This document shows positions 2,091 to 46,874 of a DNA stretch of 51,197 nt, one piece after another. The notes beneath the pieces are model-generated. The model searched no databases. It was not told the origin of the DNA and worked only from the letters and a program-made list of their open reading frames with translations. The position numbers were made by a program, and so were the translations under genes. Origin of the DNA: Alphaproteobacteria bacterium (GTDB taxonomy: Bacteria; Pseudomonadota; Alphaproteobacteria; Rickettsiales; SXRF01); NCBI GenBank assembly GCA_050249355.1, contig JBFWQQ010000003.1, positions 1 through 51,197 of the forward strand, read 5' to 3'. Position 1 is the stretch's first letter. Each line of letters opens with the position of its first letter.

Positions 2091-2154
2091 TTGCCGCCGC
2101 GAAAGCCTACTGACATCGGTTGAGGCGTGCAGATGGCTGACCCGGTTCGCCCAG
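2091..2154 (-). repeat. Degenerate copy of the double-hairpin AGNA repeat family
   Basis: GAAAGCCTACTGAC is shared exactly with 46728-46741, and GGCTGAC follows downstream as in that copy; it fills the gap between convergent genes. Confidence 0.65.
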
Positions 2155-3918
2155 CTAGAGGGCGGCGCAGCGCCCTGCCAGCCATGCACGCTGGGCTTCG
2201 TTCAGATGTTCGGCCAGCGCATCTTCCACCCACGCATGGTAGCTGTTCAGCCAGTTCTTCTCGTCGACTGTGAGCATAGTGGCATCCACCAGCCGCGTGT
2301 CGATCGGCGCGCAGGTCACCGTGTCGAAGCCATAGAAGGGTTTGCCACCCGCGCCATCGCCCGATTCCACCACCACCACCAGATTCTCGATGCGTATGCC
2401 ATAGGCCCCGGTCTTGTAATAGCCCGGCTCGTTGGAAATTATCATGCCCGGCTCCAGCGCCACATCACCACCGCGTTTGCTGATACGCTGGGGCCCTTCA
2501 TGCACACTTAAAAAACAGCCTACACCGTGGCCGGTGCCGTGATCGTAGTCCACTCCCGCCTGCCACAGATACTGGCGTGCCAGCGTGTCCAGTTGGCTGC
2601 CGCTGGTGCCCTTGGGAAAGCGCGCAGTCGCCAGCGCAATATGGCCCTTGAGCACACGGGTAAACCGGTCGCACATCTCGCCGGTTGGCTTTCCGATGGG
2701 AATGGTGCGCGTAATATCGGTCGTACCGTCCGGATATTGCGCGCCGGAATCGAGCAGGAACAATTCCCCTTCGCCCAGCACGCGGTTGGAGTTCTCATCG
2801 GCGCGGTAATGCACGATCGCGCCATGCGGCCCGCTGCCGGAAATAGTGGGAAAACTCAGGTCATGGAAATGCGGGCTTTCGGCGCGGAAACTGCGCAGCC
2901 TGTCGCACACGTTCAATTCGGTGATAGCACGGGTAGCAACTTCACTGTCCAGCCAGTGCAACAGCTTCACAATCGCCACCCCGTCGCGGATATGGGCCGT
3001 GCGTATACCCGCCAGCTCCACCATATTCTTCACTGCCTTCCATTTCTGGCAGGGATCGGGGCAATCGATAAACTGCGCACCTTGCATCGCCTGTGCGAAC
3101 CACAGCGTCACCTGTGCAGGGTCCGCCAGTACGGTCGGCTTGCCCTTGGCAAATGCTGCCAGCGTGCGCTCCATGTCGTCCGGGTGTGCCAACGTTAGCG
3201 AATCGCCCAAATGCTGGCGCACTGCCGCATCGCAACGCGCCGGATCGACGAACAAGGTCGCCGGGCCATCGCGCTCCACCAGCAGACTGGCCAACAGCAG
3301 CGGCGAATGTTCCACATCGGACGCGCGGATATTCAGCAGCCAGCAGATGCTGTCGGGCGCGCTGAGCAGCATGGCATCGCCCTGCTTTCTGGCGATGAAC
3401 TCGCATAGCTGTGCGCGTTTTTCCTTAGCGCTCTGGCCAGCATAGGCCATATCGTGCACGAACAGCGGCGTAGCGGGCTGCGCGGGCCGGTCGTTCCACA
3501 CTGCATCAATGGGGTTGGCGATGGGCATAAATTGCACTTTACCCTCGCTGGCCTTTTCGTAATGTTTCAGCATGGCAGGGGTGAATAACCGCGCGTCGTA
3601 ACCGATCATTGCCGGCGCCTGTTGCGCGGTCCATGCGGCCGATGTCAGGTCGGCACTGTTGTAGCTCTCGAACAGCGCGCCATCCACTTCATTGGCAGCC
3701 TGCAGCGTATAGCGGCCATCGGTGAACAGCGCCGCTTTATCGCGCAGCACTACCAGCGACCCGGCTGAGCCGGAAAACCCGCACAGCCACTGCAAACGGC
3801 GCGCGCAGGCGGGCGGATATTCGCTTATGAACTCATCATGCAGCGGCTGGATAAAGCCCTGCACCCCGGCAAGCTGCATCGCTTCGCGCACCATTTTTAG
3901 TTTATCATCAGCATTCAT
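2155..3918 (-). CDS. Xaa-Pro aminopeptidase (aminopeptidase P, M24B)
   Basis: Motifs DSGAQYPDGTTDITRT, HGTGHGVG, HEGP, SNEPGYY and GIRIEN. Confidence 0.95.
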   Translation of the reverse strand: MNADDKLKMVREAMQLAGVQGFIQPLHDEFISEYPPACARRLQWLCGFSGSAGSLVVLRDKAALFTDGRYTLQAANEVDGALFESYNSADLTSAAWTAQQAPAMIGYDARLFTPAMLKHYEKASEGKVQFMPIANPIDAVWNDRPAQPATPLFVHDMAYAGQSAKEKRAQLCEFIARKQGDAMLLSAPDSICWLLNIRASDVEHSPLLLASLLVERDGPATLFVDPARCDAAVRQHLGDSLTLAHPDDMERTLAAFAKGKPTVLADPAQVTLWFAQAMQGAQFIDCPDPCQKWKAVKNMVELAGIRTAHIRDGVAIVKLLHWLDSEVATRAITELNVCDRLRSFRAESPHFHDLSFPTISGSGPHGAIVHYRADENSNRVLGEGELFLLDSGAQYPDGTTDITRTIPIGKPTGEMCDRFTRVLKGHIALATARFPKGTSGSQLDTLARQYLWQAGVDYDHGTGHGVGCFLSVHEGPQRISKRGGDVALEPGMIISNEPGYYKTGAYGIRIENLVVVVESGDGAGGKPFYGFDTVTCAPIDTRLVDATMLTVDEKNWLNSYHAWVEDALAEHLNEAQRAWLAGRCAAL

Positions 3919-3929
3919 TTTCTCTCTCC

Positions 3930-3996
3930 GTCATTCCAGAAAAATCCGCCGGGATTTTATCTGGAATCTCGAGATTCCTGCTTTCGCAGGAATGAC
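3930..3996. repeat. GTCATTCC...GGAATGAC palindromic intergenic element (REP/RPE-like)
   Basis: Terminal inverted repeat GTCATTCC/GGAATGAC, two internal hairpins and a central perfect palindrome GGAATCTCGAGATTCC containing two GANTC sites. Confidence 0.8.
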
Positions 3997-4002
3997 TATT
4001 AA

Positions 4003-4911
4003 TTATCCCTTGCTACATACCAAGGTACACCAACCCGCGTCAATGAAGCGTTTTTTCACGAAAAGGTGATGCTGCGCATAGGCCTCCGCCACATAGCGCT
4101 CTTGTGTTGCAAGCAGGCCGGAAAGCACCACCTGCCCGCCGGGCGCCAGATGCTGTGGCACCTGCTTGGCCAAATACACCAATGGTTTTGCCAGAATGTT
4201 GGATATTATCAGCTCATACGGCGCGGCGCGGCGGATCGCTGGATGCGCGTAGCCGTTGGACACCAGCATGGTCATGTGCTGCGTCACCCGGTTGATGCGC
4301 GCGTTCTCCTGCGTCACCCGCACCGCTATGGGATCAATGTCGCTGGCCACCACATGCGAACGCCAGAGTTTTGCAGCCGCGATCGCAAGGATGCCCGAGC
4401 CGCAGCCCATATCCAGCACATTGGCGCAATGCCGCTGCTTGGCAAGATATTCCAGCGCCATCAGGCAGCATTTAGTGGTGCCGTGCTCGCCGGAACCGAA
4501 CGCCGCCCCGGCATCCACCTGCACAGGAATCACGCCAGTGGGAATATCCTGCCTGCAATGCGCACCATGCACATACAGCCGGTTCAGACGAATCGGCGGG
4601 AAGTCGCGCGCTACATTGGCCAGCCAATCCTGTTGCGCCAACTTTTCGGTATGCATCTCGGGTTGGGTAATATTGTACAGGCTGCACAAAATGATCAGCC
4701 GCCGTTTGACCTCCGCCATGTCCGGTGCATGATCGAACAGCAGCTCCATATTCCACTTATTGAGTTTCTCATCCACCTCGAAACTGGAAACTGCCAATGC
4801 GATATCGGAAAATTTATCATCGGCCTCGTTGATCATGTTGCCTGGCAGCGCCATACGCACCACCCAGTAATAGCGTGATTGCGCGAATGGATTGAGCTTA
4901 TTGAGCATCAT
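4003..4911 (-). CDS. prmA: Ribosomal protein L11 methyltransferase
   Basis: [25 protein letters not shown] and SNILA motifs; start chosen at the ATGA overlap with the ligA stop. Confidence 0.93.
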
Positions 4912-46244: not shown

Positions 46245-46373
46245 GGTGTATATCTTCTGTTGGTACATCATATTACACTTGTAATGCAGATTTTCTGCGA
46301 CTGCAATATTGCAGTATGGCTAAAAAGCCCTTATATAGCGCATATAGCACAATAAACAGCAAAGGATAGTATT

Positions 46374-46706
46374 ATGAGTAGCTATGATGACCGCCAGAAG
46401 GGTTTTGAGCGCAAATTTGCCCATGACGAGGAAATGCAGTTCAAGGCCACCGCCCGCCGCAACAAGCTGCTGGGCCTGTGGGCAGCCGATAAACTGGGCA
46501 AAAGCGGCCCCGACGCCGAACAATACTCGAAAGATGTGGTGATGGCTGACTTTGAAAGCAGTGGCCATGATGATGTGATACAGAAACTGCTGACCGATTT
46601 CACCGAGGCGAACCTGCCTATGTCCGCTACGGATATCCGCCGTGAAATGGAACGCCTGACCCCCATCGCACAGCAGATGGTGCTGGAAGAAAGCAAGTCG
46701 GCGTAG
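46374..46706 (+). CDS. DUF1476 / F1Fo ATPase inhibitor zeta-subunit family protein
   Basis: MSSYDDRQKGFERKFAHDEEMQFKATARRNKLLGLWAA; divergent from purC as in many alphaproteobacteria. Confidence 0.92.
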   Translation: MSSYDDRQKGFERKFAHDEEMQFKATARRNKLLGLWAADKLGKSGPDAEQYSKDVVMADFESSGHDDVIQKLLTDFTEANLPMSATDIRREMERLTPIAQQMVLEESKSA

Positions 46707-46720
46707 CGTGGTTTTTAATA

Positions 46721-46788
46721 GCCCCGTGAAAGCCTACTGACTTTCACATGGCGCACAACTCACGGCTGACTCGCGCTGCTGCGCTCGC
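46721..46788 (-). repeat. Double-hairpin AGNA repeat
   Basis: Reverse complement GCGC-AGCA-GCGCGAGTCAGCCGTGAG...CAT-GTGAAAGTC-AGTA-GGCTTTCAC-GGGGC. Confidence 0.87.
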
Positions 46789-46799
46789 ATAACAACAAT

Positions 46800-46874
46800 G
46801 GGAGGCCAGCAGGCCGACCAAGCCTTCAGCCCGCTTCATGCGATTTGCAGGAGCAAATCGCGGAAGCAGTAAAA
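46800..46874 (+). repeat. Double-hairpin AGNA repeat
   Basis: GGGAGGCC-AGCA-GGCCGACCAAGCCTTCAG...CAT-GCGATTTGC-AGGA-GCAAATCGC-GGAAGC. Confidence 0.9.

Follow-up and report, generated by a model that had tools for sequence, protein, structure and literature searches.

What kind of element is a repeat of about 80 nucleotides (nt), folded into two hairpins, that recurs eight times within some 50 kb of a bacterial genome, in some places between genes and in others inside them? The question is raised by a stretch of 51,197 nt from an Alphaproteobacteria bacterium assigned to the Rickettsiales (assembly GCA_050249355.1, contig JBFWQQ010000003.1, positions 1 to 51,197; the whole of this stretch is called the window here). 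A sequence-only reading of it had described the copies as a structure-selected, non-autonomous element resembling REP sequences or the Rickettsia palindromic elements (RPE), perhaps moved by an HuH/RAYT transposase, or else as a repeated structured RNA. When the copies are placed into the context of the whole genome and of its relatives, the first of these readings gains considerably: with 65 copies, covarying stems, in-frame copies within genes, sites that are empty in a same-genus genome, and no match in Rfam, the repeat is probably a small, non-autonomous, selfish DNA family of the REP/BIME and RPE kind.

The source genome (G000) comprises 1.91 Mb in 137 contigs and is 100% complete by markers. 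A covariance model, R1, was built from the eight copies originally listed, run on the window with filters off, applied to the whole own genome at a copy threshold of E ≤ 1e-3, and scanned over a panel of 61 genomes, consisting of the own genome and 60 relatives (36 of the same family and 24 sampled from other families of the order). Among these relatives, G001 serves as the same-genus comparison, with conserved gene order and orthologues that are 55-87% identical and hence distant. All eight copies align over about 80 nt, with R1 scores from 53.7 to 93.6 bits and E values from 3.8e-12 to 2e-22, and what had been seen as a partial head ending at 17562 resolves into two weak matches in murB, at 17495-17561 (E 0.0022) and 17421-17493 (E 0.011). 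No further match in the window is better than E 0.57. The scan of the genome and its relatives that had been suggested as a check yields 65 own-genome copies and matches in 34 of the 61 genomes. Structural statistics rest on an alignment of 67 own-genome copies, loop statistics on the 55 best and identity statistics on the 48 best, and the structure and context of copies in relatives on 76 distinct, best-scoring copies.

The unit is 80 to 81 nt long (80 nt in 27 and 81 nt in 19 of 55 copies) and consists of a purine-rich head, a first hairpin, the conserved linker CAGCCYTGAGC, a second hairpin, and an A-rich tail, GCAAT(A/C)AAAA. The alignment bears out the layout first described, in which two stem-AGNA-stem hairpins are joined by a linker and followed by a purine tail. 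RNAalifold, applied to the eight copies, gives 4 + 2 base pairs (bp) for hairpin 1 and 5 + 10 bp with a bulged A for hairpin 2, such that the second stem, originally put at 9 bp, is present but longer than described. The AGNA loops were recognized correctly: of the 55 best own-genome copies, 41 have a C-AGNA-G loop on hairpin 1 and 47 have one on hairpin 2.

The covariation of the stems is equally well founded: in many sub-lineages, compensatory changes have preserved the pairing. Among the eight window copies, 12 of 21 pairs show compensatory changes. In the 67 own copies, 90.9% of the stem cells are paired and 307 cells carry changes on both sides, compared with 68.7% and 102.6 cells for shuffles, of which none of 500 reaches either value; the covariation score is 0.539 versus 0.194 (again reached by 0 of 500), with slid controls at or below 0.157. 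The 76 copies of relatives behave alike, with 95.0% versus 68.0% of stem cells paired, 465 versus 153.4 cells changed on both sides, and a covariation score of 0.730 versus 0.221, slid controls being at or below 0.150. Because the alignments were fitted to R1 they lean toward the model, yet the slid controls and the many types of pair still argue for a real structure. The strand-specific G-T pairing that had been claimed is upheld at one position, a single T.G pair at the base of the inner stem that is conserved in 55 of the 67 own copies and 75 of the 76 copies of relatives. At other positions G.T or T.G pairs are barely commoner than A.C or C.A (48 versus 37 and 29 versus 21), which makes the argument for strand specificity weak.

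A simple motif rule separates two subtypes, type A with GGCC or GGTC in stem 1 (40 copies) and type B with GCGC in stem 1 followed by GAGTCAGCC (25 copies). The ten head-to-head doublets all join an A to a B copy, and in seven of them exactly 3 nt separate the heads. In three genome copies (C2:8563, C3:35004, and C97:1821) a third hairpin module follows the tail, creating a three-hairpin variant of about 125 nt. This module, located at 35085-35130 in the window and at about C2:8528 and C97:1787 elsewhere in the genome, also occurs once on its own (about C36:8288) and encodes ...PSPLKGEG....

An independent nhmmer profile returns 71 own-genome matches at E < 1. The copies are old and diverse: across the 48 best, pairwise identity has a median of 64.5% and a maximum of 87.5%, and 0 of 1128 pairs exceed 90%. 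Some 5-10% of the intergenic DNA here is repeat-derived. R1 matches 25 of the 36 relatives of the same family and 8 of the 24 genomes from other families of the order, the remaining 16 of which have no match, and copy counts in relatives range from 0 to 52 and vary even within one genus (36 in G012, 52 in G031, 0 in G024). Among 150 further genomes sampled across the class, only 2 match, one of them belonging to the same family and the other being 10% contaminated. A strict pattern scan across the genomes of 185,579 species finds 34 stretches, all in metagenome-assembled genomes (MAGs), 26 of them titled Rickettsiales bacterium and 8 titled Alphaproteobacteria bacterium. The family is order-restricted, genuine, and well structured. 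Hidden Markov models of the head alone and the tail alone find few solitary fragments in the own genome and no unit in which a gene lies between head and tail. One solitary tail half was seen at C17:10453-10492 (+) (nhmmer E 2.5e-7), with no head nearby.

The features of the window on which the following paragraphs draw are given below; for the eight full copies, the strand is the one on which the loops read AGNA, and bits and E values for copies are those of the covariance model.

2085..2163, minus strand: degenerate copy (53.7 bits, E 3.8e-12) that occupies the entire gap between two convergent genes.
7021..7100, plus strand: type A copy (93.6 bits) between the stop of a RecN-like gene and the start of the next gene.
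16805..17947, minus strand: murB (UDP-N-acetylmuramate dehydrogenase) with two in-frame insertions (Pfam MurB_C, 1.3e-35; NCBIfam NF010480, 1.7e-115).
17421..17569, minus strand: degenerate composite (double) copy, in frame, in the FAD-binding domain of murB (matches with E 0.0022 and E 0.011).
17833..17912, minus strand: in-frame sense copy in the 5' coding part of murB (84.3 bits), encoding 27 residues.
30683..30762, minus strand: type A intergenic copy (91.2 bits), adjoining a hairpin-plus-T terminator at about 30775-30805.
31521..31601, minus strand: solitary type B copy (74.8 bits), 76 nt upstream of the rpsD start.
34324..35427, plus strand: RluD-like pseudouridine synthase gene (NCBIfam TIGR00005, 1.5e-90 in two stretches), with an insertion at about 34993-35124.
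35004..35084, plus strand: in-frame sense copy in the RluD-like gene (89 bits), encoding 26 residues.
35085..35130, plus strand: third hairpin module, read from the sequence as a C-rich arm, a TCAA loop, and a G-rich arm, appended to the tail of the 35004 copy and belonging with it to one insertion of roughly 44 residues.
46712..46792, minus strand: type B half of a head-to-head doublet (80.4 bits).
46796..46875, plus strand: type A half of the same doublet (92.1 bits), 3 nt from the head of its partner.

The repeat is tolerated mainly in two settings, either antisense with its tail behind a stop codon, often as A/B doublets that fill convergent gaps, or in sense and in one frame as loops of housekeeping proteins. 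Of the 65 copies, 50 lie outside gene calls. Where an intergenic copy has a tail-side neighbor, it faces a stop in 37 of 49 cases, and in 32 of these the stop lies within -6 to +5 nt of the model end. The head side has no such adjacency, with a median distance of 78 nt to a stop and 41.5 nt to a start. Counted from open reading frames (ORFs), a stop lies on the tail side of 31 and on the head side of 10 of the 65 copies, whereas 3000 random windows give 130 (4.3%) and 140 (4.7%), respectively; in relatives the corresponding counts are 37 and 12 of 76. Several stops sit inside the tail, where (A)TTGCC, which reads GGCAA(T) on the tail's own strand, comes directly after the stop codon, and because the position of the stop varies over about 15 nt, there is no fixed register. 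TAG makes up 14 of the 32 abutted stops versus 424 of 1825 stops genome-wide. Copies that abut stops are antisense to the abutted gene, and genic copies are in sense.

The window illustrates this setting well. The ends of the copy at 2085 overlap the stops on both sides, TAA at 2088-2090 on the plus strand and CTA at 2155-2157 (TAG on the minus strand); the gene to its right is an M24 peptidase by Pfam. To its left, the ORF at 1278-2090 (+; 270 amino acids) has no Pfam match at E ≤ 0.01, shares only about 23% identity with the G001 ORF at the corresponding position, and has its stop codon within the tail of the degenerate copy. The copy at 7021 is antisense to both neighbors. Only 3 nt separate the end of its tail from the stop codon of the RecN-like gene (7104-8783, minus strand; Pfam SMC_N and AAA_23 matches), whose native C terminus is retained; in G001, the RecN-like stop overlaps the next start, so the 7021 site is empty there. 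Similarly, the stop of the ATPase-inhibitor zeta gene (46374-46706, plus strand; Pfam ATPaseInh_sub_z) is followed at a distance of 5 nt by the tail of the copy at 46712.

Two signals surround rpsD, identified by Pfam Ribosomal_S4. Behind the gene, at 30775-30805, lies a hairpin flanked by an A-run and a T-run, the canonical shape of a bidirectional terminator, which is kept in G001. Just upstream of rpsD, the best sigma-70-like site of the region (31486-31513, minus strand; TTGACA-16-TATAGT, 11/12) falls between the gene and the tail of the copy at 31521-31601. A reading of the repeat itself as an intrinsic terminator is not supported: its tail is A-rich on the sense strand, on the other strand the T-run precedes the hairpin, and five copies contain one weak site.

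In the second setting, 15 of the 65 copies fall within gene calls, 14 in sense and 1 antisense, and 11 of the 14 share one phase. The preferred frame encodes a peptide rich in Pro, Gly, Ser, Arg, and Glu. All 11 hosts tested are conserved housekeeping genes, namely, rluD-like, murB, lipB, recO, recJ, ubiD, coaBC, hemF, trmD, aat, and thiL; the four remaining gene-call hosts stand outside this tally. The 76 copies of relatives include 13 with read-through in sense, 12 of them in that same phase, and 2 in antisense. The openness of the frames alone would predict a sense-to-antisense ratio of about 68:45, which the observed bias exceeds; this bias and the one preferred frame therefore look like selection for a harmless peptide.

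The two host genes of the window show what such insertions look like at the protein level. The ORF at 16805-18028 is MurB, in which the Pfam domain FAD_binding_4 is split into two stretches. Its start codon overlaps the stop of the upstream gene, and the 27-residue insertion follows immediately; it is missing in the MurB of G001 between the ATGA-overlapped start and the conserved RIRE...TNWFRVGG. The internal insertion, of about 45 residues, appears as a 43+2-residue gap in the same alignment. In the RluD-like protein, the Pfam domain PseudoU_synth_2 is stretched, with 201 residues over 152 profile positions. Of 40 relatives, 38 have an orthologue (with the own genome, 39 of 41), and in the relatives listed with both pieces the match breaks into residues of about 1-222 and 265-364. 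The loop between them has at most 8 residues in 14 of 15 aligned orthologues versus about 44 in the window protein. In a single AlphaFold model (mean predicted local distance difference test score [pLDDT], 81.8), residues 233-265 have a pLDDT below 50 and lie between strands 213-223 and 268-276, and the insertion is accordingly predicted, with low confidence, as a loop that joins two strands of a confidently modeled core. In G021 (L049) and G011 (L041), which represent two other genera, the same loop carries unrelated palindromic inserts with the peptides PLTLPLSRMREREAPRMCGAGEG and SSEQWTVNSKQENKSLLNTDHRPLSTLFS. Different inserts in one loop point to a permissive hot spot and to genomes that host several gene-invading repeat families.

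Comparison of filled and empty sites, also put forward as a check, speaks for insertion. The window is collinear from 1 to 43.9 kb with G001:C6:109470-153766, a stretch that has no R1 match better than E 0.24, and all seven window sites in the collinear span (2085, 7021, 17421-17569, 17833, 30683, 31521, and 35004) are therefore without a copy there. At 30683, where both flanks can be aligned with G001, the target is A-rich and both borders coincide with the ends of the model to within about 2 nt. Different lineages have received single units at different places. The flank profiles have A/T-rich positions to either side of the copy and lack a fixed tetranucleotide, and a search for target-site duplications (k = 2-5, offsets of -10 to +8 at the head and -12 to +8 at the tail) found none; the best flanking 3-mer matches in 5 of 48 cases versus 1.6 expected. 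Head and tail of single units are not inverted repeats of each other. Contigs from two DNA runs, a possible source of the assembly, extend across the copies at 30683, 31521, and 35004 without a difference and contain no credible joint that removes a copy, although rare variants drop from contigs, which leaves them uninformative on absence.

No enzyme that moves the repeat was found. An HuH/RAYT transposase encoded elsewhere had been suggested, and this suggestion is not supported. Y1_Tnp (PF01797) has no match in G000 or in G001, G007, G012, G015, G031, and G046, with 22-52 copies each; it is found in 8 of the 61 genomes, each with 0-1 copies of the repeat, and control genomes were positive. 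None of six Y1 loci carries the repeat within 1.5 kb (R1, filters off). RVT_1 occurs in 14 of 61 genomes and in none of G000, G001, G007, G015, and G046, and DUF559 occurs in 33 of 61 and in none of G000, G001, G007, and G012. With filters off, R1 gives one weak match (E 6e-4), about 1.2 kb from the gene, on 20 DUF559 and 6 Y1 loci, and no gene is flanked. TnpB, IS110, and DDE_3 have no match in G000, G012, G015, G031, and G046; among these same five, DDE_Tnp_1 is present in one and rve in two, both with 0 in G000.

Two observations were made in passing. G054, a genome of the same order in a single 1.9-Mb contig, contains 59 Y1_Tnp (IS200-like) and 9 reverse-transcriptase matches and 0 copies of the repeat. 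In relatives, many matches to DUF559, a Vsr-like nuclease domain, lie within very long open frames of 861-1440 amino acids (for example, G049:C14:41183-41500, G035:C13:167124-167447, and G044:C1:536427-536732), which suggests that DUF559 nuclease domains are embedded in frame in large genes.

With regard to known systems, the family works like REP/BIME/REPIN and like RPE and is a member of neither. It had not been recognized as a named family at the outset, and the comparison with Rfam proposed at the time agrees: a gathering scan of the window returns only RNase P, and at E ≤ 10 the doublet locus returns nothing relevant. The RNase P RNA is of bacterial class A, full length, at 49456-49820 on the plus strand (302.7 bits). 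Literature searches found no paper describing the family, and two papers that deal with environmental Rickettsiales MAGs, PMC9352585 and PMC11077975, do not use the word "palindromic" in their main text. Likeness to REP/BIME/REPIN of gammaproteobacteria such as E. coli and Pseudomonas is found in short hairpin repeats with tens to hundreds of copies, mostly intergenic behind or between convergent genes, in two subtypes paired in inversion (here A/B in 10 of 10 doublets), and in stems kept by compensatory change with no target duplication. A REP, however, measures 20-40 bp and carries GTAG/CGTC tags, according to PMC3733652, whereas the unit here has about 80 nt and two hairpins. The family also differs from REP/REPIN in having no GTAG/CGTC end tag, no RAYT that could be found, and about a quarter of its copies translated inside genes.

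RPE-1 to RPE-10 and the Wolbachia palindromic elements, in turn, share with this family the in-frame insertion into unrelated housekeeping genes without breaking them, and RPE also share the host lineage label, Rickettsiales, and a conserved peptide. In PMC3767692 and PMC10969869, the RPE peptide is described as conserved and located in an exposed loop of the host protein, with no transposase known, and the length as 100-150 bp; copies here have 80 nt and are G+C-rich. PMC3767692 likewise gives RPE sites as conserved among Rickettsia orthologues, unlike the sites here, which are not shared with G001 of the same genus. Most copies here are, moreover, intergenic and abut stop codons, and many other families of the order have no R1 match. 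The RPE-1 peptide model TIGR01045 has no match in six host proteins at E ≤ 10, which sets the family apart from RPE-1 only, RPE-2 to RPE-10 being outside that comparison.

Miniature inverted-repeat transposable elements (MITEs) that can sit in genes, such as the Correia, ERIC, and Nezha-type elements (reviewed in PMC10969869), are likewise small, noncoding, structured, and multicopy and sometimes form in-frame fusions. In contrast to MITEs, single units here lack terminal inverted repeats, the search for target-site duplications was negative, and the copy-rich genomes share no related DDE transposase. Miniature derivatives of IS200/IS605 are hairpin-ended and strand-specific, with two subterminal hairpins, no inverted terminal repeats, and no duplication. 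The family resembles these in its two hairpins, in lacking inverted terminal repeats and duplication, and in its one strand-specific conserved wobble pair, and differs in that no Y1 TnpA, no TnpB, and no fixed tetranucleotide by the head were found.

How, then, should the evidence be weighed? Several points count against a selfish family. The tail-to-stop spacing is tighter than would be predicted if the repeat landed anywhere and survived where harmless, and it could reflect a host function or a targeting rule. A maximum identity of 87.5% gives no sign of recent activity, and all eight enzyme families searched (Y1_Tnp, RVT_1, DUF559, TnpB, IS110, DDE_Tnp_1, rve, and DDE_3) are at 0 in G000, with none common to all five copy-rich genomes. 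The distance of G001 means that borders are known only to about 2 nt and that precise loss is not strictly excluded; in addition, the gene calls are homemade and crude, and the 76 copies of relatives, chosen as the best-scoring, are no random sample. The spacing in particular would suit a host-serving element at 3' ends, whose hairpins behind stops would stabilize or end transcripts or bind a nucleoid protein, mobility being secondary, a role that has been proposed for E. coli REP/BIME. It would be in keeping with such a role that 32 of 49 intergenic tails lie within 6 nt of a stop, about 10 times as often as in random windows and alike in relatives, that doublets fill convergent gaps exactly, and that stems are 91-95% intact despite about 65% identity between copies. 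Yet no T-run follows the hairpins in either orientation, terminator-like sites are no more numerous than in shuffled sequence (26 versus 21.6 ± 4.5), a weak one overlapping only 1 of the 5 copies in 28000-47900, and canonical terminators exist beside copies. About a quarter of the copies, furthermore, lie within coding sequence and there have the reverse orientation to their gene, and G001 lacks copies at seven sites and G024 lacks any copy, so that we consider a primarily host-serving element unlikely.

Much of the same architecture could be accommodated by a REP/REPIN moved by a RAYT, that is, a Y1 HuH transposase, missing from the draft assemblies. Hairpins, no terminal inverted repeats in single units, no target duplication, inverted doublets, and a preference for intergenic sites behind genes are all features of REP/REPIN as given in PMC3337134. 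This explanation is nevertheless quite improbable in view of the 0 matches to Y1_Tnp in G000, complete by markers, and in six other copy-rich genomes, the 0-1 copies in Y1-bearing genomes, the six Y1 loci with no repeat within 1.5 kb, and ends that carry no GTAG/CGTC tag; the 21 of 67 copies that contain GTAG have it nearly always in a loop, as the AGTA variant. As for the other option raised at the outset, independently transcribed structured small RNAs or a cis-regulatory RNA motif, it would explain the strong covariation, the conserved loops, and the conserved T.G wobble, whose counterpart on the opposite strand would mismatch as C.A. Against it stand the lack of an Rfam match, an orientation to genes that is not fixed, the many copies inside ORFs or overlapping stop codons, the lack of any promoter or terminator associated with copies, and, outside the conserved pair, wobbles about as common as A.C. 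As genic copies are in sense and stop-abutting copies antisense, no single transcript orientation is kept, and we regard an RNA as very improbable. A small selfish DNA repeat of the REP/BIME and RPE kind thus remains the probable explanation.

If the repeat is such a selfish family, it may be copied as a folded single strand by a trans-acting enzyme that recognizes the two hairpins with their like caps, a route proposed because there are no terminal inverted repeats, no target duplication, and an A/T-rich target. The enzyme would not be recognizably encoded in the present genomes, in which case most present copies would be old relics filtered by selection. A bolder version, to which we attach only a small probability, is that the family spreads by no known type of transposase at all: an unrecognized, possibly housekeeping enzyme would read the two C-AGNA-G-capped hairpins on one strand and paste the unit, tail first, into A/T-rich DNA at stops. 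Were this true, the route of mobilization would be new, and it could account as well for how Rickettsia palindromic elements move, for which an explanation has long been lacking. With none of the eight searched transposase and nuclease families, the own genome is well suited to the question of how elements of this kind are mobilized.

What is unusual about the family is its tail-to-stop-codon rule, its obligately heterotypic doublets, and the lack of a recognizable transposase in the most copy-rich genomes. It combines REP-like features, in stop-abutting copies and heterotypic doublets, with RPE-like in-frame loops in essential enzymes such as MurB, and it explains the over-long murB and rluD genes in the annotation. 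Translated palindromic repeats are thus not confined to the host-bound, AT-rich genus Rickettsia; RPE-like behavior recurs, with an unrelated G+C-rich family, in small-genome environmental bacteria labeled Rickettsiales.

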